Shown one piece after another: positions 3,553-60,867 of a DNA stretch of 64,000 nucleotides. The translations under genes were made by a program, and so were the position numbers. The stretch's first letter is position 1. Each line of letters opens with the position of its first letter. The DNA lies in contig CAVYVY010000011.1 of the NCBI GenBank assembly GCA_963772145.1, forward strand, positions 67,607-131,606. Reading direction: 5' to 3'. The DNA comes from an uncultured bacterium (GTDB lineage: Bacteria; Krumholzibacteriota; Krumholzibacteriia; LZORAL124-64-63). The notes under the pieces were generated by a model. That model saw nothing but the letters and a program-made list of their open reading frames with translations, searched no databases and was not told the origin of the DNA.

Positions 3553-4641
3553 GTGTTTTCCGACCTGTCCGCACTCGAACGGATCGGGTATTCGCCGCGC
3601 TGGCAGACGCTTTTGGAGCCCCATGTCGCCGGGGGGCTGAGTCCCGGGCGGGTCATTCGCAACGATCGCGGCAGTATGCTGATCGCGACGACGGCCGGAG
3701 TCCTTCGTGCCAGGCTGTCCACCCGCCTTCAGAAGGCTGCTGGCGGCCCGGCGGATCTGCCGGCCGTGGGCGATTGGGTCGCCGTGCGGATGTCCGGGGA
3801 TTCCGCGGACCCGCTCATCGAAGTGGTGCTCGAACGCGCGAGCGCCATCACGCGCGGGGATCCGGGGAAGACGTCCAACGTCCAGGTGCTGGTCGCGAAC
3901 ATCGACGTCGTGTTTGTCGTGCAGCCGATCGCCGGGGCGCCGAATCTGCGCCGCATCGAGCGCGAGCTGTCCGTGGCGTGGGAGTCGGGGGCGCTGCCGG
4001 TGGTGCTGCTCACCAAGGCGGACCTGTCGGACGATCCGGAGGGGGCGCGGGCGGCGGTCGAGGCGATCGCGCCGGGGGCGGACGTGCACGCGCTGAATGC
4101 GCTGGCCGGAGAGGGCGTTGAGCCCCTGCTCGCCTATGTCTCGGGGCATCGCACCGCCGTTCTGATCGGGCCTTCGGGCGCGGGGAAGTCGACGCTGGTC
4201 AACGCGCTGCTCGGCGAGCAACGGCAGGCCACGCGCGAGGTGCGGCTGAGCGACGGGCGGGGACGCCACGCGACGGTGGCGCGCGAGCTGATCGAGCTGC
4301 CGGGGGGCGGCGTGCTCATCGACACGCCGGGACTTCGTGAGCTTGGGCTGACTGGGTCGGAAGAAGGAATCGCGGCGGCCTTTCCGGAGATCGAGCTCGC
4401 CGCGCAGGCGTGCCGGTTCCGCGACTGCGCGCATGGGGATGAGCCGGACTGTGCGGTCCGGGCCGCCGTCGAATCCGGTGCGCTGTCGGCCGAGCGACTG
4501 GCGAGCTACCACAAGCTCGTGCGGGAGGCGCAGCTCGCGGCGGCGAAGACGGACGTACGGCTGCGCTCGGAGGAGAAGCGCAAGTCGAAGATCTTCGGCC
4601 GGGTGGTCAAAGAGTTCCACAGGCGGGGCGGGCGGGGCTAG
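3553..4641 (+). CDS. rsgA: Ribosome small-subunit-dependent GTPase A
   Basis: 362 aa with circularly permuted GTPase motifs (VANIDVVFVV, LTKADL, GPSGAGKSTLVNALLG, IDTPG) and the C-terminal zinc knuckle CRFRDCAHGDEPDCAV. AGGAGG lies 4 nt before the GTG start. Confidence 0.9.
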   Translation: MFSDLSALERIGYSPRWQTLLEPHVAGGLSPGRVIRNDRGSMLIATTAGVLRARLSTRLQKAAGGPADLPAVGDWVAVRMSGDSADPLIEVVLERASAITRGDPGKTSNVQVLVANIDVVFVVQPIAGAPNLRRIERELSVAWESGALPVVLLTKADLSDDPEGARAAVEAIAPGADVHALNALAGEGVEPLLAYVSGHRTAVLIGPSGAGKSTLVNALLGEQRQATREVRLSDGRGRHATVARELIELPGGGVLIDTPGLRELGLTGSEEGIAAAFPEIELAAQACRFRDCAHGDEPDCAVRAAVESGALSAERLASYHKLVREAQLAAAKTDVRLRSEEKRKSKIFGRVVKEFHRRGGRG

Positions 4642-4687
4642 GCGATCCCCGTCGTCCGCTCCCCCACTCCCGCGCCTGAACCGGCGA

Positions 4688-5479
4688 TCACTCCGTGATC
4701 ATTCGGGGCAGCACGCCTCCGGGGCGACCGAAGTGCGGAGCGGTGTCGCCGACGTCCATCGGGTCCGGGGCCACGAACTCACGTTTCGAGGCCGAGAAGT
4801 ACAGGCACCCGGATTCGGTCGGTGGGCGACTCCGCACGAAGGCCTCGGCCTCCTGCAGCGCAGCGATCCAGGTCGCCTTGAGTTGGACGAGATCGATCGG
4901 GACCGCCAGATCGAGGTGCGCCAGATCCTCCGGCCGGACCCTGCCCCGCCGCCGGAGCATCTCCAGCAACGAGAGCGGCGCGTAGCCGGGGTCCTTGCCC
5001 ACGGCGGCCCACACCAGGGCTCCGAGCGGCAGGACGTTTTCGTGCAGATAGACGGTGTCGAGCAGGTCCCGCGGTTCGTCGCGCCCGGCGAGGGCCAGGA
5101 CCTTGTTGGTCGCCAGATCGATCGGGTGGAGCTGGTAACCGAACTCGTCACTGCGCATGACCGGCATGAAACGCCAGGCCGAGTCCTGGGCCCACTCGAT
5201 TTTCGTCGCGGTCTCGCCCTGGCGGACGATCGCCCGGATATGGCCCGGCTGGCTGATCTCCGTTTCCACATTGTAGCCGTTCGCCACGAGGGTGGCGTGA
5301 TCAGCCGCGAAGGCCGAGGCCACGCGGACGGCGCTGTCGTGGAAGTAGTCGAGGTCGTGGCTGAATCGGTGGGTGTTGGGGGCCACCAGAATGGCCGCCG
5401 CACCGGCGAGATAGCTGTGCTCACTGCGGTTCGTCGCGAGCAGGCGTCCCAGCCGGGCCTGGAAATCAGTCAGCGGCAC
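4688..5479 (-). CDS. Nucleotidyltransferase, AbiEii/AbiGii-like (DUF1814) toxin family
   Basis: 263 aa. The N-terminal block YLAGAAAILVAPNTHRFSHDLDYFH fits the G-x-A...S-x-D-x-D nucleotidyltransferase pattern of the AbiEii family. It overlaps the upstream small ORF by 10 nt. Confidence 0.65.
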   Translation of the reverse strand: MPLTDFQARLGRLLATNRSEHSYLAGAAAILVAPNTHRFSHDLDYFHDSAVRVASAFAADHATLVANGYNVETEISQPGHIRAIVRQGETATKIEWAQDSAWRFMPVMRSDEFGYQLHPIDLATNKVLALAGRDEPRDLLDTVYLHENVLPLGALVWAAVGKDPGYAPLSLLEMLRRRGRVRPEDLAHLDLAVPIDLVQLKATWIAALQEAEAFVRSRPPTESGCLYFSASKREFVAPDPMDVGDTAPHFGRPGGVLPRMITE

Positions 5480-10971: not shown

Positions 10972-13404
10972 ATGGGACGCATTCTTCAAGGTCTATTGTT
11001 GACGCTGGCTTTCGCCTGCTCCGCCATTCCTGCGGCAGCCCAGGCGGACTGGCTCCAGGATGGTTTGAATCTGACGAATGGCCTGGGTGATTTGATTGTG
11101 GAACGAGCGGTCACAGATGGTCACGGCGGCTGCATCGTTGCAATGCTCATCTGGGGCCAAGCCGGTGTTGATGTCCGGGCGCAGCATGTCGATGCCGCGG
11201 GGACGCGCTTATGGGGCACCGCTGGCACCCTGGTTTCAGCTGGAACAGCCAACAGCTACTGGATCGCGTGGCTTCATGTGGTGCCGGATGGAGCGGACGG
11301 CGCCATTGTTGTCTGGGCCGGCGGCGATCAACAGAGTGCCCTAATCGCGCAACGGCTGAATGCGACTGGCGAAAGGCTGTGGGCCACTGAGGGCGTTCCG
11401 CTATGCGCGCTGGCCGCAAGGCCGGGCAACTCTTCGGCTGCTGCGTCTGATGGCCTGGGTGGCGCCATCGTGGTCTGGGAAGACGGACGCGACCCGGCCG
11501 GGAGCGACATCTACGCACAACGAATCAGCAACAGTGGGCAGTGCCTGTGGGACCAGGACGGCGTTGCAGTGTGTCTGGCCGCGGGCGATCAGGTCAATCC
11601 ACACGCAGTTCCAGACGGCACAGGGGGAGGAATCTTTGCCTGGGAGGACCAGCGCAGTGATTACTCAGGCACGTGGACAGACATCTACGCGAGACGCGTG
11701 AATGCTGCGGGCCAGGCACTGTGGGCCACCGACGGCACTGCCGTTTCAACCGCAGCGGGCGAACAACACGACGTCGCCATGGCGATCGATGGAGCCGGCG
11801 GTGCTTATGTAAGCTGGGATGGGCCGTATCAAGATTCGCACGGCATCGCAGCGCAACGCCTGAATAGCGATGGCATGGCGCAATGGTCGGCGGGCGGAGT
11901 GCTGATCGGATATCGCGGAGGCCAATACGTCCTGACACCTGATGTCGCCGGCGGCCTGAGTGTTGTGTTCAAATATGACCCAACATCTGGGCCGCCATTC
12001 TACATTATGATGCAACACTTCGATGGCACTGGAACATCGACGTGGGATGGTCCGATGTCCGTGTGCAGAAGCACGGAATCGATCTACAGTATTCGCGCGG
12101 TGGCTGGTGCGAACGGAGACGTGATTGTCTCGTGGACTTCTGGCGAACGTCTTCGCGCCCAGCTCGTGAGTGAGCGAGGGGAGCAACTTTGGGCTGCTGC
12201 CGGGGTCCCCGTCTGCAACCTCCCGAATGTTGTTGAGCCTCAACTTGTGCCAGGCGCTGATGGATCAACGATCTTCGTCTGGCTGGACTGGCGGAGCCAG
12301 CAGTTCGAAATCTACGCACAGATCATTGACTCCCGGGGTGTCTGGGGGGCGCCTTCTCCGATCATCGGATGGCTGCGAGATGTGGCTGCCGATGAAGGAG
12401 GATGGCTCGACCTGCGCGTCATGTCGCCGACTCACGATCGGGAGGGAGTAACCGACGACCCCATCATCGGCTACAACGTATGGCGGAGATTGCCTGCTGC
12501 CCCGGGCGGCGGGAACGCGAGCCTCGACAGCGACAAGACGGGAATGGAGATCTTCTCTGCGATTGAGGCGCCACTCAACACCGATTGCGTACACCTGACG
12601 GTCGAGCAGGCGACAACAGCCGGGTTCCCTCCAGGTGAGTGGGCTTCCGTGGGATTCCATGCGGCGGTGCAGGCTGAAGAGTATCGATTTGTAGTTCCCA
12701 CAAGGCAGGACGCTATCGGAGACATGACTCCCTGGGAAATGTTCGCCGTAAGCGCCCACACCGCAAGGCCAGGAATCTACTTCATCTCCGGCCAGGACAG
12801 CGCCTTTTCCATAGACAATCTCGAGCCGGCCACGCCGGATGGCATCGCGGGTTTTGTCAGGGAGGATGCGAACGGGCTGGACTTGAGTTGGTCTGCCGCC
12901 AGGGAGAGCGATTTCGCACAGTATGTCGTCTCAAGGGGAGCGAACCCGGAATTCACGCCCGGACCGGATTCCTGGCTGGCCTATCCGACGCAGTCACACT
13001 ACTTCGATGCGGAATGGACTCCAGATAATCGCTACTACTACAAGGTGGTGGCCGTCGATCGGCATGGCAACCAGAGCGCACCCGCGCTTCTGGCGCCGGA
13101 CGACGCGCGCGGAGAAGACGTGCCATCCGCGCTGTTTCTGGCCCAGAATGCGCCCAATCCCTTCAATCCCCGAACCAGAATGGCCTTTGGTTTGGTCAAC
13201 TCCGGAGCGGTATCCTTGCGCATCTACGACGTGGCGGGGCGTCTCGTGAAGACTCTCGTGGAGGGTATGTTCCTGCCGGGATCTTACTCACGCGAATGGG
13301 ATGGTCGTGGCGATCACGGGGAGGCCATCGCCTCCGCGGTCTACGTGGTTCGGTTGGTAACGGAACAGGGAATTCGAACTAGTAAGCTCACGTTGGCCCG
13401 GTAG
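10972..13404 (+). CDS. Secreted tandem-repeat (beta-propeller-like) protein with an FN3-like module and NPFNPRT C-terminal domain
   Basis: ATG 10972 follows GGGGGAA. Signal peptide MGRILQGLLLTLAFACSAIPAAAQA. About 55-aa repeats of the form LW(A/G)T.G..V.......DG.GGAIVVW.D.R....DIYAQR. An FN3-like block (FAQYVVSRG...YYYKVVAVDRHGNQSAP). C-terminus NAPNPFNPRTRMAFGL...IYDVAGRLV...WDGRGDHG...KLTLAR. Confidence 0.75.
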   Translation: MGRILQGLLLTLAFACSAIPAAAQADWLQDGLNLTNGLGDLIVERAVTDGHGGCIVAMLIWGQAGVDVRAQHVDAAGTRLWGTAGTLVSAGTANSYWIAWLHVVPDGADGAIVVWAGGDQQSALIAQRLNATGERLWATEGVPLCALAARPGNSSAAASDGLGGAIVVWEDGRDPAGSDIYAQRISNSGQCLWDQDGVAVCLAAGDQVNPHAVPDGTGGGIFAWEDQRSDYSGTWTDIYARRVNAAGQALWATDGTAVSTAAGEQHDVAMAIDGAGGAYVSWDGPYQDSHGIAAQRLNSDGMAQWSAGGVLIGYRGGQYVLTPDVAGGLSVVFKYDPTSGPPFYIMMQHFDGTGTSTWDGPMSVCRSTESIYSIRAVAGANGDVIVSWTSGERLRAQLVSERGEQLWAAAGVPVCNLPNVVEPQLVPGADGSTIFVWLDWRSQQFEIYAQIIDSRGVWGAPSPIIGWLRDVAADEGGWLDLRVMSPTHDREGVTDDPIIGYNVWRRLPAAPGGGNASLDSDKTGMEIFSAIEAPLNTDCVHLTVEQATTAGFPPGEWASVGFHAAVQAEEYRFVVPTRQDAIGDMTPWEMFAVSAHTARPGIYFISGQDSAFSIDNLEPATPDGIAGFVREDANGLDLSWSAARESDFAQYVVSRGANPEFTPGPDSWLAYPTQSHYFDAEWTPDNRYYYKVVAVDRHGNQSAPALLAPDDARGEDVPSALFLAQNAPNPFNPRTRMAFGLVNSGAVSLRIYDVAGRLVKTLVEGMFLPGSYSREWDGRGDHGEAIASAVYVVRLVTEQGIRTSKLTLAR

Positions 13405-13986: not shown

Positions 13987-14817
13987 ATGCCGGCACCGAA
14001 TGCGCAGATGTTTTCCCAGCTCACCCGCACGAATTTCAGCGCGAAGGGCATTCGGATTCCGCTGGACTGGGCGCCGCCCGGCGAACAGTTCCCGGATGCG
14101 TTCGCGCCGTCGGAGCGGCAGGTCGCGCCGGGGTCGCCCACCGAGCTGTTCCATGCGGCCACCCTGAACCGGTACCACGTCGATGCGGCCGCCGGCATGA
14201 GCGACAGGCTCGGCACCTACATCGACGGGGTCTGCGGGGCGATCTGCGGCGCGATCGGCAACTGGATGCAGACCGCCATGGTCGCCGGGGCGCTCATCAA
14301 CGGGCCGGTCGGGACGCTGCTGCCGGGCGGGGTGGTGGGGCCTCCTCTGCTGCCGCTCATCCTGGGGCAGGCCCCGAAGACGACGCCGCTCGAGACGCAG
14401 TACTCGCTGGCGATCGCCAACGCGTTCAGCTCGGCCTGGCTGGCGTGGCAGACGGGGCTGACCGGGATGCTGACCTATCCCGCCTTCGCGGCGGTGCCGT
14501 CGCCGGTGGCGCCGCCGATGCCGAACGTGCCGATGCCGCTGGTGACCTTCCCGTCGGCCGGCGAGGCGATGCTCTCCCCCTCCACGCTGCAAAGCGCCAT
14601 GGTGGGGATGCTGGGCAATCCGACGGCGCAGCACGCGCCCGAGCTGTTCGACGCGCTGGCGCAGGCGTTCGGCATGGTGTTCCAGATGTTCAAGGCGACG
14701 ACCATCGTGCAGAATGTGCTCGGCACCGGGCCGGTGCCGACGTTTGCGCCGCCGTTCGTGCCGGTGGGGCCGGTGCTGGCCGGCACCGTCATCCCCACGC
14801 CCGGGGTGTTCGTGTGA
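13987..14817 (+). CDS. Hypothetical Gly/Pro/Ala-rich protein with a glycine-zipper-like hydrophobic core (possible PAAR-associated cargo)
   Basis: 276-aa ORF lying 12 nt after PAAR and 25 nt before the DUF2169 gene. It contains GVCGAICGAIGNWMQTAMVAGALINGPVGTLLPGGVVG. No family recognised. Confidence 0.5.
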   Translation: MPAPNAQMFSQLTRTNFSAKGIRIPLDWAPPGEQFPDAFAPSERQVAPGSPTELFHAATLNRYHVDAAAGMSDRLGTYIDGVCGAICGAIGNWMQTAMVAGALINGPVGTLLPGGVVGPPLLPLILGQAPKTTPLETQYSLAIANAFSSAWLAWQTGLTGMLTYPAFAAVPSPVAPPMPNVPMPLVTFPSAGEAMLSPSTLQSAMVGMLGNPTAQHAPELFDALAQAFGMVFQMFKATTIVQNVLGTGPVPTFAPPFVPVGPVLAGTVIPTPGVFV

Positions 14818-14842
14818 GCGACCGGCGGAGGGTCGCAGCGCC

Positions 14843-15964
14843 ATGAAGATCGTCAACGAGACGCCGTTCATCGCCGAGGCGCTGCCGTTTGTCTGGCCGG
14901 ACGGGCGGGCCGCGCTGACGGTCATCCTCAAGGGGACGTTCACGATCCGTCCGGATGAGCCGGCGGAGCCGGCGACCGAGCAGTTGCCGATCCTGTTCGC
15001 CGACGCGCCGCTCGACCCGGAGAACCCGGCGCTGGGCGCGCGGTTCGAGGCCGACGTCGTCCCGTTCAAGCCGCGCGCCGACATCGTGCTCGTGGGCCGG
15101 GCGCACGCGCCGCCGCACAAGCTGGCGCGGGCGCTCGACGCGTCGCTGCGCGTGGGCAAGGTGAAGAAGGTCGTGCGGGTGATCGGCGACCGGCACTGGA
15201 CCTGCGGCGGACGCCTGCTGCCGGCCGCGTTCTCGGCGGCGGAGCCGTTCAAGAGCATGGACCTGGTCTACGCGCGCGCCTTCGGCGGCATCGACCAGAA
15301 GGGGGGCGGCTACTGCCGCTACAACCCCATCGGCCGCGGCTACATGGCGAAGAAGAGCAAGAGCGCGGTCGACGGCACGCCGCTGCCGAACGTGGAAGAC
15401 CCGCGCCACCTGATCAAGGCGTGGAACAGCCGTCCGCGCCCGGTCGGCTTCGGCTTCTACGGCCGCGGCTGGCTGCCCCGCCTGCGCTACCTCGGCACCT
15501 ACGACGAGAAATGGCGCAAGGAGCGGGCGCCGGCGCCGCCGGAGGACTTCCGCTTCGAGTCGTACAACGGCGCGCATCCCGACCTGCAGGTGAAGGAATA
15601 CCTGCGCGGCGACGAGGACGTGGAGCTGGTCCACCTCACGCCGCAGCCGCGGCTGCGCTTTTTGCTGCCGGCCGTGACGCCGGTCTGCGCGGTGCTGCGG
15701 CACGGCGCGGCGGTCGAGCCGCCGCCCGCGCGCGCCGGGTCGTCCGGGGAGCCGCTCCCGCCCCCGGTCCCGCGCGAGGGCGAGGATCGGGTCGTCGACG
15801 AGCCGACGCCCGGTTCGACGGCCGGCGAGCGGGTCGCGCTGAATCTCGACACGCTCGTGTTCGTCCCCGAGGAGATGCGCTTCACCCAGGTCTGGCGGGG
15901 CGTCTTCCCGCTGGCCGACCCGTCGGCGCGCGAGGTGGCGGAGATCGGCGTCTGGCTGGCGTGA
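14843..15964 (+). CDS. DUF2169-family T6SS adaptor-like protein
   Basis: 373 aa from ATG 14843. The N-terminus MKIVNETPFIAEALPFVWPDGRAALTVILKGTF and later blocks (ARAFGGID, NPIGRGY, PVGFGFYGRGWLPR) match my recollection of DUF2169. The context (PAAR upstream, effector downstream) also fits. Confidence 0.7.
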   Translation: MKIVNETPFIAEALPFVWPDGRAALTVILKGTFTIRPDEPAEPATEQLPILFADAPLDPENPALGARFEADVVPFKPRADIVLVGRAHAPPHKLARALDASLRVGKVKKVVRVIGDRHWTCGGRLLPAAFSAAEPFKSMDLVYARAFGGIDQKGGGYCRYNPIGRGYMAKKSKSAVDGTPLPNVEDPRHLIKAWNSRPRPVGFGFYGRGWLPRLRYLGTYDEKWRKERAPAPPEDFRFESYNGAHPDLQVKEYLRGDEDVELVHLTPQPRLRFLLPAVTPVCAVLRHGAAVEPPPARAGSSGEPLPPPVPREGEDRVVDEPTPGSTAGERVALNLDTLVFVPEEMRFTQVWRGVFPLADPSAREVAEIGVWLA

Positions 15965-16000
15965 GCGCGCCGGCCCGTTCCCGCGACACGGAGCTGAGCG

Positions 16001-19000
16001 ATGGCGAACGAGGTCCACCTCATCGGTCAGAACGTCCTCAACCCGCCGCCCGCGGACCGCTGGTTCGTCGACTACCTGCCGCTCAACGGGGGCGACGAGC
16101 TCACCTACTACGTCGACGGCGAGAGCTACGCCACCGACCTGCACGCCGCCCTCACCGGCGCCACGCAGGAGATCTGCCTGACCGGCCTGCACTTCAGCGG
16201 CCACTTCCACCTCAAGCGGCCGGGCGGCTGCGACCCCCTGAAGCAGGACGACCCCGACACTCTGCAGGAGATCCTGGCGGCCCGCAGCAAGGCCGGCTGC
16301 GAGATCTATCTGCTGGTCAACCAGTTCTGGCCGGACGAAGGGGAGATCGCCGCCGACTACTGGCGCGCCTACCGGGACCTCGACAAGCTGCTCTGGAAGA
16401 TGCCGCACGCGATCGCGCGGCACGATCATGGCCTCGGGCGGGATTCCCGACTACCTGGAGAAGACGTTCGCCTTCTTCGAGTACCTCAGGCGACCACGGC
16501 AACGCGGCGAAGATCCACTGCTACACCGACATCCACCAGGGCTACATCTTCCACAGCAACCACCAGAAGACGATCATCGTGGACCGCAATATCGCCTTCT
16601 GGGGCGGCATCGACCTGACCGACATCGACGGCGACCGCTGGGACGCCGCCGCGCACGCGCCGGGCAACAAGCTGCGCAACTTCGACAAGCCGGAGCGCAA
16701 CTGGCACGACCTGCAGCATGCGGGCCGTCAAGCCGCAGGGCGCCAAGGTCGAGCGCCGTCGACTACGTCTACGCCAACTTCCTGGCGCGCTACAACCACG
16801 GCTACCTCTACACGCCGTGGCGCAACGGGCAGGGCGTGCTCGAGGCGAAGCGGGAGAGCAGCTTCCCCAAACTGTCGCCGCCCGGCGGCAAGACCGCGCG
16901 GGACTACGTGCCGAAGGAGTGCTGGTACTACCCGCGGCAGCGCGAGCGCTACCAGCAGCAGGGCGTGCTGGCCTGGCCGCTGGTGCAGGTGGTCCGCTCC
17001 ATGCCGGCCGGCGCCGGCGGCAACTACTCCCGCAACCAGCATCCGCTCTGGAACGAGCTGCGGGTCGAGGTGCAGCCCGACGCGGATTTCCCGCCGCAGT
17101 ACGTCAACCCTTCGTTCGAGCACTCCGCGCGCGACGCCTACCTCAAGGGGATCGCCGCCGCCGAGAAGTTCATCTACCTCGAGAACCAGTGGGTGGCCGA
17201 CGACAGGATCTGGGCCGCGCTGTTCGCCGCCGCCGAGAAGCACGGCGCCGAGGCCGACTTCCGGCTGCTCGTCGTCCTGCCCAAGAAATTCCTGGCGGCG
17301 GCCGGCTTCGGCAGCGAGCAGACGATCGACCTCAACCCGTACGTGGAGCGGCTGGCCCGCATCTTCAAGGACAAGGGACGGCCGGAGAACTTCGGCCTGT
17401 TCAGCATCCTGCAGCCGGCGGGGCACCAGGATCCGGTGCGCGAGCAGACGAAGGTGCCGGAGTGCGTCTGGGACTACACGTACGTGCACTCCAAGCTGCT
17501 GATCGTGGACGACTGCTGGGCGCTGCTCGGCTCGGCCAACGCCGGCGGCATCTCGCTGACCGGGCTGGGCACGACGAGCGAGCCGGACACGGAGCTGTCG
17601 GCCATCGTGCTCGACGAACGGGGCGACGGCTCCCTCGTCAAACAGCTGCGCAAGAAGCTCTGGGCCGAACACCTCGGACTCGCCGAGGCGGACGTGGCCG
17701 ACTACAAGACCGGCGCCGACCTGTTCCACACGCAGGCGAAGGGGCAGCCGTTCAACACGACGAGCGCGAAGCGCGTGCACTACAACCTGCTCTACTACCC
17801 CTCCTCCCCCAAGGCCGCGGCCGCGCCCAACAAGGGGGTGTGGCGGCACCTCAAGTGGGAGCAGATCCAGCACCAGGTGAAGGCGCGCGTGGCCGACCCC
17901 GACGCCATCCACCAGACCTACTACAACCTGAGCGGCCCGCTCACGGCCGTGCACATGCTGCTCGAGCGCGATCCGTCGCGGTACGAGAAGCTGGTGGACA
18001 ACCTCTACAAGACCGGCGTCGACAAGGCGTGCGACGTGCGGCTGCAGCTGCCCGACCCCCACCTGCACGACGTGCCGGTCCTGGTGCGGCCGCAGGAGCT
18101 GGTCGAGTTCGCCGTCGAGCCGGAGCACCCGATCCTCGAGGTCGACTGGATGGTCGGCGGCGCGCTCACCGACAGCGCCAACTGGGTGCTCGACTACCAG
18201 GGGGCGGTGTCCGAGACCACCGCCACGGTCTGCTCCAACGGCGACATGGTCCGCCACCTGAAGAAGATCGTCCCGTGCCAGGGCGGCGTGACGCATCTGA
18301 GCTGCGAGAGCTACGGCGAGCTGAAGGAGGCGCAGCGGGCGAGCGTGCTGTTCGGCACCGGCGCGCCGGCGAAACCGCACACGGTGTTCGGCGCGGTCAA
18401 GCTCGGCACGGCGCTGCTGCTGCAGCCGGACGAAGCTGCGGTCGAGCGCGACAAGGGCGTGGCCAACCGCGACCTGGGCGACCCGAAGTACTGGATCAGC
18501 CGCGTGACCGACAACCCGTGGCTGCAGCTCAGGCGCGACCGCGCCTACCCGCTCTACCCCGGCGTGCTGACCCCGTACGACGTGAAGCACATCCTGGGCG
18601 ACCGGATGTACGTGCGCCTGCTCCAGCCGCTCGAGTTCAAGTACGACGGCGACAAGATCACCGACGTGCGGATGAGCTTCTGGACCTGGGGCCGCCGCTC
18701 CACGCTCGAGGTGCCCGCCGCGCTGTTCGCCAAGCAGGTCTACGGCTTCTTCATCGGCTACTACACGAACGGCGCGCGGGCGAGTGCCGAGGAGAAGCTG
18801 ACGCTGCGCGCCAACCGGGTGCGGCTCAAGGCCGGCTGGCAGCGCGACTACGTGCACGACGATGTCGACGGCAGCAAGCTGACCGTGATCTGCCACGGCG
18901 GCGCGCTGCGGGTGGAGCTGGCGCGATGCGTCTGGTCGACGTGGGAGGTCGTGCAGACCGTCGACGTCGGCGCGGGGCAGTCGGTCACGCTGCAGATCGG

Positions 19001-19094
19001 CGAGGCGTCGAAGGTCAACGACCAGGACGACCGCGCGCGCATCACGGCGACGGCGGACGCAGAGTACTCGCTGGAGATGAAGAGCTGGACGTAG
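16001..19094 (+). CDS. Phospholipase D-superfamily T6SS effector (Tle5/PldA-like), dual HKD; reading frame broken by four +1 insertions at about 16427, 16488, 16717 and 16757
   Basis: HKD motif 1 is FHSNHQKTIIVDRNIAFWGGIDL (frame of track ORF 15421..17502). HKD motif 2 is YVHSKLLIVDDCWALLGSANAG (track ORF 16428..19094). The N-terminus MANEVHLIG... is in ORF 16001..16618. I joined the pieces by reading all three frames. The frame is continuous from about 16760 to the stop at 19094. Confidence 0.8.
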
Positions 19095-19146
19095 GCACGG
19101 GCCCGGCCCGGCCTGCGCCCGATCGCCCCGACGCCGGCGCCCCCGC

Positions 19147-19710
19147 CTACCGCATCCCCTCCAACGGCACCGCGGCCAGCGCCGCCTTCGCCGCCGCGTT
19201 CTCCGCGGCGAGCGAGCGGGCCAGCGCGTCGACGACCTTGCGGCATTGCGCTTCGGCGAGCAGCCACTCCAGGGCGCGTTCGCCGGTCGGCGCCGTCTGC
19301 ACGAGGACGAAGGCCCAGCGGTGCGGCAGCACGGACGTGTCCGGAAGTGCGCGCGCGAGGTTGTCCAGGATCGCCGTGCGCTCCTCGGACGAGATGGGCG
19401 CCCGGCGCAGGTTGCCAACCTCGTCATTCGCGTAATTGACGCCCCCGGACTGGTGCCGCTTGAACAGCGCGCCGTCGGGCGGCGCCGCCCCCTCGTACAG
19501 GACGACGCTCGCCACCGGCTTCTCCTGCGGACCCACATAGGTCAGCTTCGCCTGGATCGGCTCGCTGCGGGACCAGGCCCCCGGTTCGCGTTCCCCGCCC
19601 TCTCGCGTGCTCATCGTATCCCCTCCTCTGTGGCCGCAGCCGATCGCGAGTGCGGCCAGGATCGGCAGCGAGACCGCGATTCGCCAGGGTGTCATCCGAC
19701 GGTTTTCCAC
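19147..19710 (-). CDS. Lipoprotein, candidate periplasmic T6SS immunity protein
   Basis: The lipobox LAALAIGC follows a basic N-region (ENRRMTPWR). GGAG lies 6 nt before GTG 19710. It is the last gene of the vgrG-distal operon, immediately after the 256-aa unknown and convergent with the PLD gene. Confidence 0.55.
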   Translation of the reverse strand: MENRRMTPWRIAVSLPILAALAIGCGHRGGDTMSTREGGEREPGAWSRSEPIQAKLTYVGPQEKPVASVVLYEGAAPPDGALFKRHQSGGVNYANDEVGNLRRAPISSEERTAILDNLARALPDTSVLPHRWAFVLVQTAPTGERALEWLLAEAQCRKVVDALARSLAAENAAAKAALAAVPLEGMR

Positions 19711-19722
19711 AACTGGCTCCAA

Positions 19723-20493
19723 TCAGGGGACGAGGGCCGGCTTGACGAACCCGTCCGCGTCGTTGCGCGCCTTGTTGAAGAGCTTGAAGGCGTCGAGGAC
19801 GTTCTTGTCCGGCTCCGTCAGCTCCCCCACGTACTGCGAAATGCCCGGCCGCCCGTGCTTGTTGTCGTCATGGGTCTTCGTGAAGCGCCAGGCGATCCCC
19901 TCGTACCAGATCCCGTGGTCGAGACCCTTGCTGCAGAAGGCGAACACCTGGAAATCGAGCACGCAGGTCTTCCATCCATTCGGTTTGGCGGTCTTGTCGT
20001 AGAACCCCTTCACGCCGCCGTCGTTGTTCGGCTGATCCGTGATGCGACTGAGATGGACCGGCGCGTAGCGCAGCGTGTTGTGACTGCCTTCGTGATCGAC
20101 CGCCACGCTCGCGCGGCGTCCGTTGAGGTTCGCGAAGCTGATCTCGCCGACGGTCCAGCCCGGGCGGGCGGCATCGCCCGCCACCTCGGTCCCGTACGAG
20201 TCGTTGTACCAGGGGTGGGTCTCGTTCTTGAGGGCGTCGATGCTCATGCCCCGCGTCTTCGCGCCGGTGAGGCAGGTCGCGTCCTTCCAGTCGAACCCGG
20301 CCCCGGGGCCGTAGTATTCGGACGGCAGCAGCGGCGTGCCGTCGAGGAACCGGGCCACCGCCTGCACGAGCACGATCTTCTCGCCGAACGGCACGCGGGC
20401 CGAGCGCTGCGGGTCGTACTCGACCATGATCAGGTTGGGCGCACTGGTCGGGCTGATCGCGCGCCCGGACAGGACAGTGAAAGGCCCGCTCAT
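19723..20493 (-). CDS. Unknown 256-aa protein, candidate T6SS effector
   Basis: Its own ATG at 20493 is preceded by GGGGGAA and lies 11 nt after the stop of the upstream gene. The track merges it into ORF 19723..21180. No signal peptide (MSGPFTVLSGRAISP). No motif I can assign. Position: vgrG, LysM, LysM, this gene, lipoprotein. Confidence 0.55.
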   Translation of the reverse strand: MSGPFTVLSGRAISPTSAPNLIMVEYDPQRSARVPFGEKIVLVQAVARFLDGTPLLPSEYYGPGAGFDWKDATCLTGAKTRGMSIDALKNETHPWYNDSYGTEVAGDAARPGWTVGEISFANLNGRRASVAVDHEGSHNTLRYAPVHLSRITDQPNNDGGVKGFYDKTAKPNGWKTCVLDFQVFAFCSKGLDHGIWYEGIAWRFTKTHDDNKHGRPGISQYVGELTEPDKNVLDAFKLFNKARNDADGFVKPALVP

Positions 20494-20504
20494 GCCCGTT
20501 CCCC

Positions 20505-21180
20505 CTAGATCCCGTGCCGCTGCAGCAGGCGCGCGCGCAGGTCGTCCGTGATGGTGCCGGTTTCCGCGATGACCTCGAGCTTCTGGAACAGGACGATCGA
20601 GCGGGCCGTGCGCGGCCCGAGGACACCGTCCTCCCGGCCGGCCCGCAGGCCGAGGTTGTTCAGGCGGGCCTGGACCCCCGACACGCCGCGGTCCGGCGTG
20701 TCGTCGCCCATCGGGATTGAGGTGCCCGATGTCCAGCGCGACGAACACCTTGCCGACCTTGAGGGTCGCGGGATCGTGCAGCCGCGGCACCGGCGATTTC
20801 GTCTTGCCGTCGCCACCGCTCGAGCCGGAGCCGCGGGCCACGCCGGCGATCGTGTAGGCGTACGCCACGCCCGCGTTCGGCTTGCCCTTGTCGGCCTCGA
20901 TCACGATGGTCAGTTCGTCGCCCTTGCCCTTCGCCTTGAAGGCGTGCTTCGCGCCGTCGCCCGCCGTCACCGGGCGCTGCCGCACCGGCGGGATCCAGAC
21001 GAGGTCGCCGGCCTGCAGCAGGTTCGGTTTGCGCAGCTTGCGCAGGTCGGAATTCTTCGGATCGTTCCAGATCGTGCGCCAGTCCGCGAACCCGTAATCC
21101 TGGCACAGCTTGCGCAGCCACTCGCCCTGCGACGCCGGATGGTACCCGGGCGGGATGATCTTGCCACTCACCGGCACCAT
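20505..21180 (-). CDS. LysM-like plus PG_binding_1-like protein (paralog 2); +1 frameshift in a CCC run near 20714
   Basis: The N-terminus GEWLRKLCQDYGFADWRTIWNDPKNSDLRKLRKPNLLQAGDLVWIPP is LysM-like. After ...VALDIGHLN the reading continues in track ORF 20505..20816 as PMGDDTPDRGVSGVQARLNNLGLRAGREDGVLGPRTARSIVLFQ, the peptidoglycan-binding repeat pattern. Confidence 0.6.
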
Positions 21181-21214
21181 CCTCCTGTCGGCCGCCCGGT
21201 CCGGGCCCCGCCGC

Positions 21215-21880
21215 TCACGCGTCGTGCTCCGCGGCCAGCTTGTCGCACGTCTTCTGGTCCGGCTCGCCGGTCGCTTCGAGATCGCAGGCCCGCTGGAAAT
21301 CGGCGAGCGCGCTGCGCGTCGGCTCGTCCAGCTCGCCGGAGGCCGGGCAGGGATAGCCCAGGTTCTCGAGCCGCTGCTGGACGCCGGTGATCGAGGCGAC
21401 CGGGTCGAGCCCGCTCAGCCGCAGCTCGAATTTCTGCTGGTCTTTCTCGTCCTGCCCCACGGTCAGGGTGCCCCGCTGCGCGTTCGGCGGCACCGGCACT
21501 TCGACCACGCCGTCGCCATCGGTGCTGCCCTGGCTCAGCTTGCCGTCGATGTTGAGCGTGTACGGCTCGTTCTTGCGGGGCTCGCCGTCGCGCAAAATCC
21601 GCACCCGCAGCCGCGACGGCAGCCCCTTGCGGCGGAAGCGGTGCTTCTGCCCGTCGGCCGCCTGCTCCTGCCGGAGCCGCGGGTCGGGAACCTGCACGCG
21701 GTCGCCCGGCAGCAGCAGCGACGGGTCCTTGCGCTCCCGCTTGAGCTGCGCGTTGTCGGGGTGACTCCAGAGGGTGTCGGGCAGGAAGCCGTGCGCCAGC
21801 GCGATGCTCTCGATGCACTCGCCCCGCTTCACGACGTGATTTCCGCCGCCCACCGGTTTGGCCGCCGCCTGCTCCGCCAT
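21215..21880 (-). CDS. LysM-like plus PG_binding_1-like protein (paralog 1)
   Basis: 221 aa. HVVKRGECIESIALAHGFLPDTLWSHPDNAQLKRERKDPSLLLPGDRVQVP is LysM-like, and ITGVQQRLENLGYPCPASGELDEPTRSALADFQ is PG-binding-like. Its ATG directly abuts the vgrG stop (TAGATG). Confidence 0.65.
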   Translation of the reverse strand: MAEQAAAKPVGGGNHVVKRGECIESIALAHGFLPDTLWSHPDNAQLKRERKDPSLLLPGDRVQVPDPRLRQEQAADGQKHRFRRKGLPSRLRVRILRDGEPRKNEPYTLNIDGKLSQGSTDGDGVVEVPVPPNAQRGTLTVGQDEKDQQKFELRLSGLDPVASITGVQQRLENLGYPCPASGELDEPTRSALADFQRACDLEATGEPDQKTCDKLAAEHDA

Positions 21881-24200
21881 CTAGGCCTTCTCCCAGGTGT
21901 CCTGGTCCAGGTCCGGGAAGGTGACCTTGCAACTGCCCGGCTCGATCCCCTCCACCCGCGCCTGCCCCTTCTCGTCGAGCGTGCCCTCGGCCGTGGAGCC
22001 GTCGGACAGCTCGATCCGGTAGCGCTCGCCCGGCACCGGCTGGCCGTCGTCGTCCACCAGTTCGATCTCGATCCAGCTCGTCTTGCGCGCCTTCTCCTCG
22101 GGCGTCTGCGGCGGCTTGTGCGGCGTGACCTGCGTCATGGCGCCGGCCACCGCGTCGCCCGCGACGACGGCCGCGATCGGCACCGCCGGCGGCACCAGGC
22201 CGAGCGCGCTGATCGCGTCGGCCGCGGTGCCGGGGCCCGAGTTGATCTTGGTCATCCCGCCGTCGATGGTGACGAGCGAGCCGGTCAATGTCACGCCGGC
22301 CGGATCGATGACGACGCTGTTCCCGCCGCACTTCAGCGTGATCTTCGACATCCCCTCCACCACGATGCCCATCGCCTTCAGGTGCAGGCTCTGCCCCACC
22401 TCCTGGTAGTGGTTCGCGCTGTACCCCTCGCTCACGTCCCCCTTGACCTTGACCGAGCGGCTGCCGCCGATCTCGATCGCCTCCTTGCCGACGACCTTCC
22501 GGTGGCGGTCCTTGCCGATCTCCTCGATGTGGTCGGCGCCCACCTTCTCCTGCCGGTTGTTGTCGACCTGCTCGATCTGGTCCTTCTTGACGTACAGGTG
22601 GCGGTCGTTGCCGATCCACTCGCGGGCGTCGTTCTTCACCCGCACGTCCTGGTCCTTCTCGGCCTGTACGAACAGCTGCTCGGCGCCCTTCTTGTCCTCG
22701 AAGCGGATCTCGTTGAAACCGCCGCCGCCCTTGCTGGAGAGGCTCTTGAGCGTGGACATCGTGGCGTTGGCCGGCAGGTCGTACGGCGGCATGGCGGCGC
22801 TGTTGTAGACCCCGCCGGTGATGAGCGGGCGGTCGGGATCGCCCTCGAGGAACTCGACCACCACCTCGTGCCCGATGCGCGGGATGAACAGACCGCCCCA
22901 CTGCTTGCCGGCCCACGGCTGGGCCACGCGGATCCAGCAGGAGCTGGTCTCGTCGGCCTGGCTCAGCCGGTCCCAGTGGAACTGCACCTTCACGCGACCG
23001 TGCTGGTCGACGTGGATCTCCTCCCCTTTGGGACCGACCACGAAGGCGGTCTGCGGGCCGGGCACGCGCGGCCTGGGCGTCAGGCGGGCCGGCCGGAACG
23101 GCACCGCGTGGGGCATGCAGACGAAGCGGTTCTCGTACTTGCTCGTCCAGCGTTCCGCGGCGCCGGTGCTCTCGAACACCGCCTCCTGGGTCAGCTCGTG
23201 CCGCACCTCCGTCAGCAGGTAGCTCTGCGCGAAATCGGCGCGGGGGTGCCCCGTCAGATCGAAGCGGTGGCCGGCCAGGAAGCCGCGGCAATCGCTCTCG
23301 CCCCGCGCCACCACCGCCTGCTGGTCGCCCTCCTGGCGGCGCAGCTTCAGCCGGGCCTCCCCCTTGTCGAGCTTGCCGGCCTGCTCCCCTCCGAGCGACG
23401 CGTAGGCGCCGGGGTAGTCGTAGACCTCCAGGCGCCGGTCGCTCCCCTCGGGCACGGTGCTGTTGGCCGAGACGAGCAGGCTGGTGCCGGGATCCATGAA
23501 GTTGAAGTCGCACAGGCTGTAGGCGCCGGTCTGCAGCGCGTGCTCGACCGTCCACGCGTTCACGTTGTCCTTGTCCTCGTGCCGGTCGGATCCCGGGATC
23601 GAACTCCGCGGCCGGCTGGTCGGGACAGGCGGGGTTGCGGCCGGGCGCGTCGGCCAGCACCAGCTTGTGCATCGACGGGCCGTGCTCGAAGAAGTAGAAG
23701 ATCCCCTCCTCCTCGAGCAACCGCGACACGAAGTTGAAGTCCGACTCACGGTACTGCACGCAGTAGACCCACGGCTCGTAGGTCCCATCGAGCCGCAATT
23801 CGAAGTCGTTGAGCTTCAGCCCGGCGAAGACCTGTTTGACGATGTCCGGCACGGTCAGGTTCTGGAAAATGCGGCAGTCGACGCGCCGCGTCAGCAGCCA
23901 CAGCCACGGCACGATCTCGGCATGGTAGACCGTCAGCCGGCGGTCGGCCCCCCCCTGCGCGAAGCGCGAGATCAGGCCGTGGATGCGCCGCGAGCCGCCG
24001 TCGCCGAGCGCGATCTCGATGAGCGCCGGCTGTCCGATCAGCGCTTTGAAGTCGATGGCGTCGTCCTCGGACAGCAACTCGAGCTGGAACTGGAACGGAC
24101 GCGACACGCCCTCCCAGCCGGTCAGTCGTCGGACCATCAGCCGGTCCTCGCCCAGCGGCGTGCTGAGACGGCAGATCCGGCCCTCCTGCTGGAACAACAT
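21881..24200 (-). CDS. vgrG: T6SS spike protein VgrG; +1 frameshift near 23591
   Basis: The N-terminal part (MLFQQEGRICRLSTPLGEDRL...YCVQYRESDFNFVSRLLEEEGIFYFFEH) is at the start of track ORF 21168..24200. The remainder (GPQTAFVVGPKGEEIHVDQHGRVKVQFHWDR...RVAQPWAG..WG..FIPRIGHEVVVEFLEGDPDRPLITG, then the beta-helix repeats) is in ORF 21881..23788. Confidence 0.9.
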
Positions 24201-24222
24201 GGCGGCTCCTGTCGCTCGATCG

Positions 24223-26928
24223 TCAGGTCATCCGGTACTGGAACGTCCCCTGGTCCACGACCACCTCGACCCGCGAGAACGGCTCGCTCGCCGCGAGTCG
24301 TGTCAGGAACTCCACCGAGATCTGCGGCAGCAGCGTCTGCGTGAGGAGATGGTCGATGGCCCGGGCCCCGCTTTCCGCCTCGGTGCACCGCGCGGCGATC
24401 GTTTCGAGCAGATCTTCGCCGTAGACGAACTCGACGCGGTGGTTCTGCCGCACGCGGCGGGCGATCCGTTCGAGCTGCAGGCGGATGATGCGCCGCAGCG
24501 CCTCGCCGGCGATCGGGTAGTACGGCACGACAACCATGCCGCCCGAGCAGGGCGGCGGGGAACTGCCGCAGCAGCTCGGGGCGGATCGCCTCGGCCAGCC
24601 CCTCCGGCTCCGGGCAGGTCTCCGGGTCGGCGCACAGCTTCATGATCGTGTCCGATGCCGACGTTGGAGGTCAGCAGGATCACGGTGTTCTTGAAGTCGA
24701 TGTCGCGCCCTCGCCGTCCTCCAGCATGCCCTTGTCGAACACCTGGTAGAAGAGGTCCATGCACGTCGGGATGGGCCTTCTCCATCTCGTCCAGCAGGAC
24801 GACGCTGTAGGGCCGGCGGCGCACCGCCTCGGTCAGCACGCCGCCCTCGCCGTAGCCGACGTAGCCCGGCGGCGAGCCCATCAGGCTGGAGACCTTGTGC
24901 TCCTCCTGGAACTCGGACATGTTGATCGCGATCAGGTTGTGCTCGCCGCCGTAGAGCAGCTCGGCCAGCGCCAGGGCGGTCTCGGTCTTGCCCACGCCGC
25001 TGGGCCCGACCAGCAGGAACACGCCGATCGGCCTGCGCGGATCGGTCGAGGTTGGCGCGCGCGGTGCGGATCGCGCTGCGCGATCGCCTCCAGCGCGTGC
25101 GTCCTGGCCGATGACCCGCTGCTCGCAGGCGGTCCTGCGAGGTCGAGCACGGTCCGGATCTCGTCGGCCACCATGCGGCCGACCGGGATGCCGGTCCAGC
25201 CGGAGACCACCTCGGCGATGGCCTGGCGTCGACCTCGCAACCGGATCAGCGGCTGCTCGCCCTGGAGCTGCGCGCAGCTCGGCCGCGCAGCTTCGTCCAG
25301 CTCGGCGCGCAGCTTCGCCTGCTCGGCCTTGGTCGGCGGCTTCGGCGCCGTCGGCGCCCGCCTGGTCGGTCTCCCCGCTGCCAGCCGGGTGCGGCACGGC
25401 GCACGAGCCGGTCCGACCAGCTCCAGCTCCTGCTTCCAGCGCGCCTCCAGCGGCGACCAGGCGCGCCGCGGCTTCGGCCGCGCGTCCGCGGCGAGCTCGG
25501 CCAGCCGCTCCGCATGGTCGGCGCCCGGCGCGCTCTCGCGCTCGAGGATGCGCGTCTCGGTGTCGAGCGCGTCGATGCCGCCGGTGGCAGATCCTCGACC
25601 GGCGCCGGCGTGGCGCTGCTGGCCGATGGCCACCCGCGCGCAGGCCGTGTCGAGCACGCTGACCGCCTTGTCGGGCAGCTGGCGGGCCGGGATGTAGCGG
25701 TGCGACAGCCGCACCGCGCTCGACACCGCCTCGTCGAGGATGCGCACGCCGTGGTGCTTCTCCAGCGTCGGCGACAGGCCGCGCATCATCTCGACGGCCG
25801 CGCTTCTCGGTCGGCTCCTCGACCTTGACCACCTGGAAGCGCCGCGCCAGCGCGGCGTCCTTCTCGAAGTACTTCTTGTACTCCGCCCAGGTGGTGGCGG
25901 CGATGGTGCGCAGCTCGCCGCGCGCCAGGGCCGGCTTGAGCAGGTTGGCGGCGTCGCCCTGCCCCGCCTGGCCGCCGGCGCCGATCATGGTGTGCGCCTC
26001 GTCGATGAACAGGATGATCGGCTGCGGCGAGGCCTTCACTTCGTCGATCACCGGCTTGAGCCGGTTCTCGAACTCGCCCTTGACGCCGGCGCCGGCCTGC
26101 AGCAGGCCGAGGTCGAGCGTGCGCAGCGCCACGTCCTGCAGCGAGCGGCGGCACGTCGCCCGCCGCGATGCGCAGCGCGAACCCTTCGACGACCGCCGTC
26201 TTGCCCACGCCGGCCTCGCCGGTCAGGATCGGGTTGTTCTGGCGGCGGCGCGTGAGGATGTCGATGATCTGGCGGATTTCCGCGTCGCGCCCCAGCACCG
26301 GATCGACCCGGCCGGCCTGCGCTTCGGCCGTCAGGTCGATCGTGAACTGGTCGAGCGCCGGCGTGGCGGCGCCGGCGCCGGCGCCGCCCGCTCCGCCGCC
26401 CGGAGCGCCGCCGGCGACCGGCGCGCCCGCGCCGAGCGCGAACACCTCACGATCCTCGGGCGAACCGGCCACGATCATGGCCAGTTCGCGCTCGAGCACC
26501 TCCGTCTTGATGCGGCGCAGGTCGGGCGAGGCGTCCAGCAACCGGCGCTGCAGGTGGCGATCGTTGAGCGCCGCCAGCAGCAGGGCCCCCGAGCGCACCC
26601 TGGCCGTGCCGAGATTGATGGAGGAGAGCACCCACCCCTCCCGCATCACGTCTTCCAGGCTCGGCGCCAGCTGGGGCCGGCCGCCGTTGCCGGTCTTGTA
26701 CTGGTCGAGCGACTCGTCGAGGTCGCGCAGGAAGCGGTCGGGATCGATCTCGAAGCGCCGCAGGATCCGGTCGAAGTCGCCGCCGGTCCCCTCGCCCAGC
26801 TTCATGAACCAGTGCTCGAGCTCGACCTCGTAGTGGGTGCGGGACAGACAGAGCCCCGCCGCGCCCTCCAGCCCGCGCCGGGCGTTGTCCGTCAGCTTGC
26901 CGACCAGCGACTTCAGGTTCAGGCTCAC
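24223..26928 (-). CDS. clpV: T6SS AAA+ ATPase ClpV (TssH); reading frame changes at least ten times
   Basis: GTG 26928 lies after GAGGAGGAG. Conserved blocks are spread over all three frames. They are: [18 protein letters not shown] (Walker A1); [14 protein letters not shown] (Walker B1); [12 protein letters not shown]; WTGIPVGRM; RVIGQD / HALEAIAQR; [21 protein letters not shown] (Walker A2); [15 protein letters not shown] (Walker B2); [17 protein letters not shown]; and the C-terminal [14 protein letters not shown]... Confidence 0.85.
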
Positions 26929-60622: not shown

Positions 60623-60867
60623 GCAGCGCTCGCTTTCCGGGAGGGAGATCGCCGCGTCGGGCCGGCCGCCGGCCGAGCAGCCGACGTGCCACGCCAGCTT
60701 ACGCGTTGAGGGCCGCGGGGTCAAAGGGCGGGGCGGCAGCGCCCGCGGCGTGTTGCCACCCAGGGTCATTTCTTGTTATGCTTGGTAATCGCGATGCTTG
60801 ATCCTCCTGTTTCCATGCTGCCGCGGTCGGCCTCTTGTATGCCATAAGATCAAAAAGGCGGGCTCAG

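Follow-up and report, generated by a model that had tools for sequence, protein, structure and literature searches.

A candidate effector-immunity pair of a new family at the end of a vgrG operon from an uncultured Krumholzibacteriota bacterium

What do the last two genes of a vgrG operon encode when the first of them resembles no described protein family and the second specifies a lipoprotein? The question was raised by a stretch of 64,000 nucleotides (the window; positions 67,607 to 131,606 of contig CAVYVY010000011.1, assembly GCA_963772145.1) from an uncultured bacterium of the Krumholzibacteriota, in which the vgrG operon of a type VI secretion system (T6SS) ends with a gene for a 256-residue protein, here called X, and a gene for a lipoprotein. 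The first-pass annotation of this DNA had proposed the two as a candidate effector-immunity pair. Comparison with homologous loci supports that proposal, as a candidate, through conserved gene order, the fusion of X domains into the toxin positions of other proteins and the co-inheritance of the partner gene. X is probably a VgrG-loaded T6SS cargo effector recruited by a cognate LysM adaptor, with the exported lipoprotein as its neutralising immunity protein, and the two together represent a candidate new effector-immunity family within a known kind of system. The two genes are as follows.

20493..19723, minus strand: gene X, 256-residue candidate cargo effector with its own ATG and GGGGGAA upstream
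19695..19147, minus strand: 182-residue lipoprotein, candidate immunity protein, with signal peptide MTPWRIAVSLPILAALAIG and lipobox Cys20

The frame of X opens with the ATG at 20493 and runs for 256 codons to a TGA stop at 19725-19723 on the minus strand. The gene ahead of it ends in a TAG at 20507-20505, and the intervening gap of 11 nucleotides reads GGGGGAACGGG-C, which contains the GGGGGAA site. The start codon, this site and the spacing were as the first-pass annotation had described them, and the peptides DHEGSHNTLRYAPVHL and CSKGLDHGIWYEGIAWRF were both found in the X translation. The N-terminus of X is not hydrophobic, which bears out the earlier description of a protein without a signal peptide. 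X had also been described as hidden within a 485-residue open reading frame, and this frame (19723..21180) does exist mechanically and encloses X. When a homologous LysM/PG_binding_1 protein was aligned to the window using tblastn, residues 19-168 matched in frame -2 (21162-20713) and residues 168-236 in frame -3 (20714-20508). Owing to a single additional base in AATCC(C)GATGGG (~20713), the N-terminal half of the upstream gene shares the reading frame of X, and the 485-residue frame is, judged from this alignment, an artefact in which the upstream LysM/PG_binding_1 gene is joined to X by a 1-nucleotide frame change.

A search of 5.8 billion proteins gave 13 relatives of X, all metagenomic, of which ten are full length (253-260 residues, 54-90% identical) and have the same start methionine. 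X differs from its 90% identical counterpart on contig L013 by 44 synonymous and 25 non-synonymous codon changes, with the differences distributed 13/13/50 over the three codon positions; on this comparison X is a real gene under purifying selection. One close relative (P0012, 88% identity, on a Logan contig of 1997 nucleotides) is a 219-residue chimera of the first 86 residues of X and a lipoprotein with an internal deletion, which is either a deletion remnant of the X/lipoprotein pair or a misassembly.

The lipoprotein open reading frame lies in the same frame as X and has possible starts at TTG 19722, GTG 19711 and ATG 19695. Translation from the ATG begins MTPWRIAVSLPILAALAIGC, giving a signal peptide and a lipobox (LAALAIGC) as noted in the first-pass annotation. 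The recorded call for the window contig (P0134) is a 155-residue form that starts at M27 and has no signal peptide. The 182-residue form is favoured because L013 retains both the signal peptide and the lipobox. Between these two contigs the lipoprotein shows 22 synonymous and 35 non-synonymous codon changes, and it is faster-evolving than X. A loss of the signal peptide through a call from an internal ATG was seen repeatedly for this gene (window 19147-19722, L001 10878, L005 3365, L096 1406), and the true starts appear, from the reading frames, to lie upstream, often at GTG or TTG. For annotation the consequence is that gene callers bury X in a longer open reading frame and clip the signal peptide from the candidate immunity protein. 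The frames of X and the lipoprotein are parted by a single TGA and nine codons (window 19696-19725; L013 932-961). Readthrough of this in-frame TGA was considered and rejected, as other loci put the two genes in different frames, and the shared frame is probably of no significance.

When the contigs of the close homologues were compared, every one with enough flanking sequence had the same arrangement of a LysM/PG_binding_1 protein of about 221-236 residues, X at 12-75 nucleotides further on, and then a small exported protein homologous to the window lipoprotein. This order, with an exported protein of about 150-180 residues, was found in L001-L004 (X 70% identical), L005-L007 (55%), L008 (61%) and L009-L010 (69%), headed by vgrG in L001-L008, and the unit is also present on L013-L015, which are short contigs without vgrG. 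Linkage to T6SS genes among homologues, whose absence together with a lack of toxicity the first-pass annotation would have counted against the pair, was conserved on all contigs long enough to judge: wherever a contig extends far enough, the unit lies within a vgrG or T6SS locus. The contigs that carry vgrG or T6SS core genes are L001-L003, L005, L007-L009 and L011-L012. In L005 the unit directly follows vgrG and adjoins tssB/C, hcp, tssE/F/G and clpV. In L009-L010 it is part of a T6SS locus in which vgrG is found beyond a PAAR protein, some 6 kb downstream, and in L009 the unit stands between the PAAR protein and another T6SS cluster. The X remnant of L011/L012 has no partner gene after it. 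Contig L008 contains, at 11462-12923, a second copy of X split over three frames and a second copy of the lipoprotein, in tandem and downstream of the first pair.

The small proteins that follow the T6SS-linked copies of X all carry N-terminal export signals, located upstream of the called starts. Inspection by eye identified the lipoboxes LAIGC in the window and L013, LSAGC in L005 and LLIGC (LLLIGC) in the second L008 copy, with atypical boxes in L001 (AWAC) and L009 (ASDC) and a signal peptide without a box in the first L008 copy. Export of the X partner is probably conserved among the T6SS-linked copies, and lipidation is probable in some lineages only.

The close-family profile of X was scored against 1.84 billion cluster representatives, which gave 122 proteins at E ≤ 1e-3 and 63 at E ≤ 1e-10, or about 120 clusters at 50% identity. 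A profile word-index search with alignment A2 gave no further members. The members of this superfamily are almost all from uncultured bacteria, are mostly 200-310 residues in length and match X in two stretches, the window clade carrying an extra insertion at approximately residues 100-145 of X. In several members the X domain is joined to a delivery module. P0015 is a LysM-like/PG_binding_1 protein fused to an X domain, and six proteins (P0021, P0041, P0053, P0063, P0067 and P0069) have the Rhs core TIGR03696 directly N-terminal of the X domain. P0049 consists of eCIS_core (formerly DUF4157), a known marker of the toxins of extracellular contractile injection systems (eCIS; PMC8213781), followed by the X domain. 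Its gene lies in an eCIS locus (L097), past Pvc16-like and AAA genes and upstream of the tube, spike and baseplate genes. Several superfamily members also have Cys-rich or 'IGNQ' leaders, typical of such cargo. These architectures place the X domain in the toxin position of three delivery contexts, namely the T6SS-type LysM/PG_binding_1 fusion, Rhs and eCIS, and indicate that X is no local oddity and belongs to a superfamily also used by Rhs and eCIS systems. The eCIS locus L097 has an unusual passenger at 4152-5234, where a gene with an LGT (prolipoprotein diacylglyceryl transferase) domain lies between two eCIS_core genes.

The distribution of the partner was followed with a hidden Markov model (HMM) built from seven lipoprotein homologues. 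In the window this matched the expected gene only. Elsewhere it matched the gene immediately behind X in L001-L010 and L013-L015, as well as the second L008 copy, behind the second, fragmented X. The pairing of X with a lipoprotein-family gene is conserved even for distant relatives, with matches to the gene after the P0015 fusion (L096; motif KLTYVGPQEKPV, signal peptide ahead) and to the gene directly after P0049 in L097 (E = 2.5e-11), which has no signal peptide. Two further matches lay within proteins that also contain an X-like domain. P0073 (L098 2324-5101, seen in two assemblies) is composed of a signal peptide, a partner-like domain and an X-like domain, and has in addition a C-terminal region of about 500 residues of no known family, while P0126 contains an X-like domain and then a partner-like domain. 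These fusions show that the X and partner domains function together.

X, the lipoprotein and 62 family members gave no match in scans of Pfam, NCBIfam and PHROGs, and nothing below E = 0.9 was obtained when X, alignment A2 and the lipoprotein were compared with PDB sequences using phmmer and profile searches. A structural model of X was calculated with AlphaFold2. With an alignment of 12 sequences the predicted local distance difference test (pLDDT) was 50, which is unusable; with 62 sequences the pLDDT was 81.5 and the predicted template modelling (TM) score 0.81, and low confidence was confined to the clade-specific insertion and the C-terminal tail. The model has a C-terminal helix (230-246) and an antiparallel sheet, whose three long strands span residues 37-50, 176-190 and 196-207. 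Foldseek searches with this model revealed no neighbour in the PDB (best E = 0.18, TM ≤ 0.2) or in BFVD. NTF2-like, TRPML-linker and RNA-triphosphatase folds appeared as scattered Foldseek noise with a probability of at most 0.1 and were rejected, and no fold was read from them. The earlier description of X as a protein without a motif that could be placed held in the sequence searches, and no housekeeping or structural family, which would have spoken against an effector, emerged from the Pfam, NCBIfam, PHROGs, PDB and Foldseek searches.

Residue conservation in X was computed across approximately 125 sequences and gave the following pattern.

Q44, P94, W202: conserved 100%
D153: conserved 99%
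D86, P155: conserved 98%
D71: conserved 88%
C187: conserved 85%
D51, Y96: conserved 83%
Y197: conserved 79%
any His: not conserved
E198: not conserved

An acid- or metal-dependent enzyme would fit this pattern, and so would a sugar-binding site. A tentative proposal is that X is an enzyme which uses the cluster of D71, D86, D153, Q44 and Y96 beside W202 on a glycan- or lipid-linked substrate of the envelope. Four cysteines are conserved in most relatives of X, and some of these are lost in the window clade. The cysteines of the relatives, together with the existence of Sec-type relatives, suggest a domain built for the extracytoplasmic space. Several known chemistries were considered. A Cys/His amidase or hydrolase was rejected, as H136 varies, no histidine is conserved and no cysteine is invariant. 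An ADP-ribosyltransferase of the ExE or R-S-E type was also rejected, since E198 and the arginine residues are not conserved in the superfamily. Comparison with peptidoglycan hydrolases (Tae, Tge, NlpC/P60, M23, lysozyme-like) gave no likeness in sequence or fold and no conserved Cys/His, Glu or metal-binding His set.

Between vgrG and X the operon contains two genes for proteins with LysM and PG_binding_1 domains.

21881..24200, minus strand: vgrG (TssI), TIGR03361 E = 1.6e-124, with Phage_GPD, Phage_base_V and Gp5_trimer_C
21215..21880, minus strand: first LysM and PG_binding_1 gene, 221 residues, PG_binding_1 E = 2.1e-11
20505..21180, minus strand: second LysM and PG_binding_1 gene, of the X-cognate adaptor type, frame broken by 1 nucleotide at ~20713

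The VgrG protein has a transthyretin-like C-terminal extension with a weak CarboxypepD_reg-like match at residues 577-624. The second LysM/PG_binding_1 protein has 49-81% identity to the protein that precedes X in L001 (L001:9278-9985). All X-linked copies of this protein have the signatures PPGYH and GHLNPMxxDTPDxGVSGVQARLNNLGLRAG in common and form a sequence type of their own. The first protein is 49% identical to L011:595 and 45% identical to L011:3289, and both of these open a cargo cassette of their own (a 206-residue open reading frame with a phospholipase C (PLC)-like gene, and a 537-residue unassigned protein). In the window it is directly followed by the second, without a cargo gene of its own, and is either an orphan adaptor or a shared one.

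An alignment of 11 LysM/PG_binding_1 proteins (A3) revealed an N-terminal LysM-like domain, a β-rich middle region and a C-terminal PG_binding_1 domain. PG_binding_1 was detected in all 11 members and the Pfam LysM domain in six of them (best E = 2.7e-4), with the window copies below the Pfam LysM cut-off (E = 0.12). The A3 profile matched the LysM domain of SafA (E = 1e-3) and that of a phage tail-tube initiator (E = 4e-3) in the PDB. In published vgrG loci LysM and PG_binding_1 domains are found either in genes of their own or as parts of VgrG or toxin proteins, a downstream effector needs a LysM protein in order to bind its VgrG, and the LysM domain is linked mainly to lysozyme-like, NlpD and NlpC/P60 cargoes (PMC10673891). 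The window encodes a LysM-domain protein between vgrG and X, as in this LysM-dependent loading of VgrG, and P0015 is the fused form. Each LysM/PG_binding_1 paralogue precedes a different cargo, both in L001 (an M23 peptidase, and X) and in L011/L012. The first-pass annotation had taken the two peptidoglycan-binding genes upstream of X as a hint of a cell-wall target. The genes are there, with both domains, but they are only weak evidence for such a target, because each paralogue precedes a different cargo, which fits the published LysM loading. The proteins are better explained, by analogy, as cognate VgrG-loading adaptors or co-effectors.

Contig L011 (1-10900) and contig L012 contain an array of cassettes after vgrG, each opened by a LysM/PG_binding_1 paralogue. 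The cassettes hold the 206-residue open reading frame with the PLC-like gene (Zn_dep_PLPC), the 537-residue protein, an Amidohydro_2 gene with a 363-residue open reading frame, and a remnant adaptor with the X remnant, after which comes PAAR. This array looks like a polymorphic cargo island.

In the arrangement that we consider probable, X would be made in the cytoplasm without a signal peptide and docked on the VgrG spike by the LysM/PG_binding_1 protein encoded just upstream, whose paralogue type is found only with X, as LysM proteins do elsewhere. X would then be fired with the spike into neighbouring bacteria, where it may act in or from the periplasm on a component of the envelope. The exported, lipid-anchored protein would bind and block X and so spare sister cells. 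We infer the secretion of X, its toxicity, its neutralisation by binding and the compartment in which it acts; for toxicity and neutralisation the indirect evidence is the fusion of X domains into toxin slots.

Several observations weigh against the effector-immunity reading. X-like and immunity-like domains are found in one polypeptide in P0073 and P0126, which could point to a cooperating rather than an antagonistic pair. The eCIS-linked partner has no signal peptide, so a strictly periplasmic target would not hold throughout. About 35 of the 119 superfamily representatives have Sec-like N-termini by a heuristic criterion, some of them with Ig-like domains, and so look like ordinary Sec-exported proteins. 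Searches of 185,579 GTDB species representatives with the two A1 patterns did not find X, so there is no cultured host, and sequence, profile and Foldseek searches found no known toxin fold or catalytic motif in X. The frame changes in the T6SS genes and in the cognate LysM/PG_binding_1 gene, if real, would make the system defunct in this organism.

The first three of these observations are also what speaks for the main alternative, in which X cooperates with the lipoprotein-family domain within a single secreted machine, such as an enzyme with an activator, chaperone or pro-domain, that T6SS, Rhs and eCIS devices merely export. The fusion of the two domains occurs in both orders and, for P0073, in two assemblies, and many family members are plain Sec-type proteins. 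A toxin covalently joined to its antidote is unusual, and the cofactor or pro-domain alternative stays alive because P0073 and P0126 have the two domains fused. Against it, vgrG operons that close with an effector gene and then a gene for a small exported protein have the classic effector-immunity layout, the L008 contig has a tandem duplicate of the pair, and the partner diverges faster than X. In the window, moreover, the partner is probably lipid-anchored in the periplasm of the producer and X has no export signal, and the two would meet only after injection. We regard a cooperating pair as unlikely.

It is somewhat less credible still that the locus is a decaying remnant, in which vgrG, clpV, tssF and the cognate LysM/PG_binding_1 gene are truly frameshifted and X is left undelivered, or that X is made as a 485-residue LysM-X fusion. 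At least seven frame changes were counted over about 9 kb of T6SS genes, with at least four in clpV and one each in tssF, vgrG (~23630) and the second LysM/PG_binding_1 gene (~20713). The broken-frame sites in the window lie at 20713, ~23630, 24286-26913, ~29635 and within 16001-19094. The deleted X/lipoprotein chimera P0012 in a close relative and the X remnants in L011/L012 also favour decay. The breaks fall at short C/G runs, however, and the L008 contig is fragmented in a like manner, both typical of indel-prone assemblies, and the frame changes are probably indels of an error-prone assembly. X and the lipoprotein are intact, have the same lengths as in L013 and are under purifying selection.

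In a last alternative, X is an accessory or structural part of the spike without toxicity (a cap, sharpening factor or second adaptor) and the lipoprotein an unrelated envelope protein. This would suit the lack of a recognisable catalytic motif or toxin fold and the constant company of a LysM/PG_binding_1 protein, often near a PAAR gene, but it is very improbable given that the X domain follows the cleavage motif of the Rhs core and also eCIS_core, in C-terminal positions reserved for toxins, that Sec-type versions of X exist without any T6SS, and that the lipoprotein family accompanies X in contexts other than T6SS, which speaks against an unrelated neighbour.

With X read as an effector and the lipoprotein as its immunity protein, confirmation would add an effector-immunity family that is named in no database and comprises about 120 clusters at 50% identity, with a predicted fold that has no PDB neighbour and conserved residues unlike known toxin chemistry. 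The occurrence of the X domain behind three delivery devices would give a handle on the re-packaging of one toxin domain, and the one-adaptor-per-cargo arrays would extend the LysM loading route well beyond the Proteobacteria. A broader and more speculative suggestion, which we hold to be doubtful at present, is that X is the founding member of a toxin superfamily whose fold resembles no solved or viral-predicted structure and whose activity on the envelope is new. T6SS (through LysM adaptors), Rhs and eCIS would share this superfamily, and its partner would be an immunity protein when separate and a built-in inhibitor when fused.

The vgrG operon ends 52 nucleotides from the stop of a convergent phospholipase D (PLD)-type gene. 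A scan of positions 18800-24600 for promoters and terminators found none. The convergent gene belongs to a second candidate effector module (window 13987-19094, plus strand), which lies outside the X pair and also includes a 276-residue Pro/Ala/Gly-rich protein that could not be assigned.

14840..19094, plus strand: convergent module, with a DUF2169 adaptor at 14840-15961 (E = 7.6e-90) and a PLD-type candidate effector at 16001-19094

The PLD-type protein is about 1000 residues in length and is spread over three frames. It has two weak HKD (PLDc) motifs, with a sub-threshold E = 1e-3, and a long C-terminal region without a known family. Elsewhere in the window, on the minus strand at 51744-54038 and 59084-60769, are genes for an RCC1-repeat protein with a FlgD_ig / Por_Secre_tail-like domain at its end and for RadA. 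Among the GTDB matches listed for RadA, the best were 39-46% identical and scattered across many phyla, and the organism may come from a lineage that has been poorly sampled.

The proposed pair can be compared with four kinds of known system. The Tae/Tai, Tge/Tgi and Tle/Tli pairs are periplasm-acting T6SS effectors with lipoprotein immunity proteins. X and its partner are like them in having an effector without a signal peptide, a putative Sec/lipobox immunity protein encoded next to it and a link to vgrG, but X has no similarity in sequence or fold to the amidase, muramidase and lipase effectors and no conserved Cys/His or Ser/Asp/His set. The Rhs-CT polymorphic toxins and eCIS_core toxins (PMC3482391, PMC8213781) correspond to the six proteins with an X domain after the Rhs core and to P0049 with one after eCIS_core, in which a dedicated partner family is found immediately downstream. 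The X domain differs from these toxins in having no entry in Pfam (the Ntox and Tox families included) or in the PDB, in that a third of its family looks Sec-exported, and in that two members fuse toxin-like and immunity-like domains.

In Myxococcus xanthus, TsxE is a T6SS effector with LysM and amidohydrolase domains that is linked to vgrG2 and has the immunity protein TsxI (PMC5801462). Common to both cases are an orphan-vgrG operon, an effector that bears LysM and, downstream of it, an immunity gene that belongs to no known family, and L011 holds a split TsxE-like version, in which a LysM/PG_binding_1 gene precedes an Amidohydro_2 gene, within the array that also contains an X remnant. In contrast to TsxE, X has no amidohydrolase or other recognisable catalytic domain, and the LysM module of the window is a separate protein. 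The LysM-dependent systems of Ketobacter alkanivorans (Kalk_10465, VgrG; Kalk_10460, LysM; Kalk_10455, effector; Kalk_10450, immunity) and Burkholderia (BRPE67_05220) (PMC10673891) differ from the window in that the window adaptor adds a C-terminal PG_binding_1 domain and a β-rich middle region, and X belongs to no described family. They have in common with the window the order of vgrG, LysM gene, effector and immunity gene, the existence of stand-alone and fused LysM forms (here P0015), and the tie of each LysM paralogue to its own cargo.

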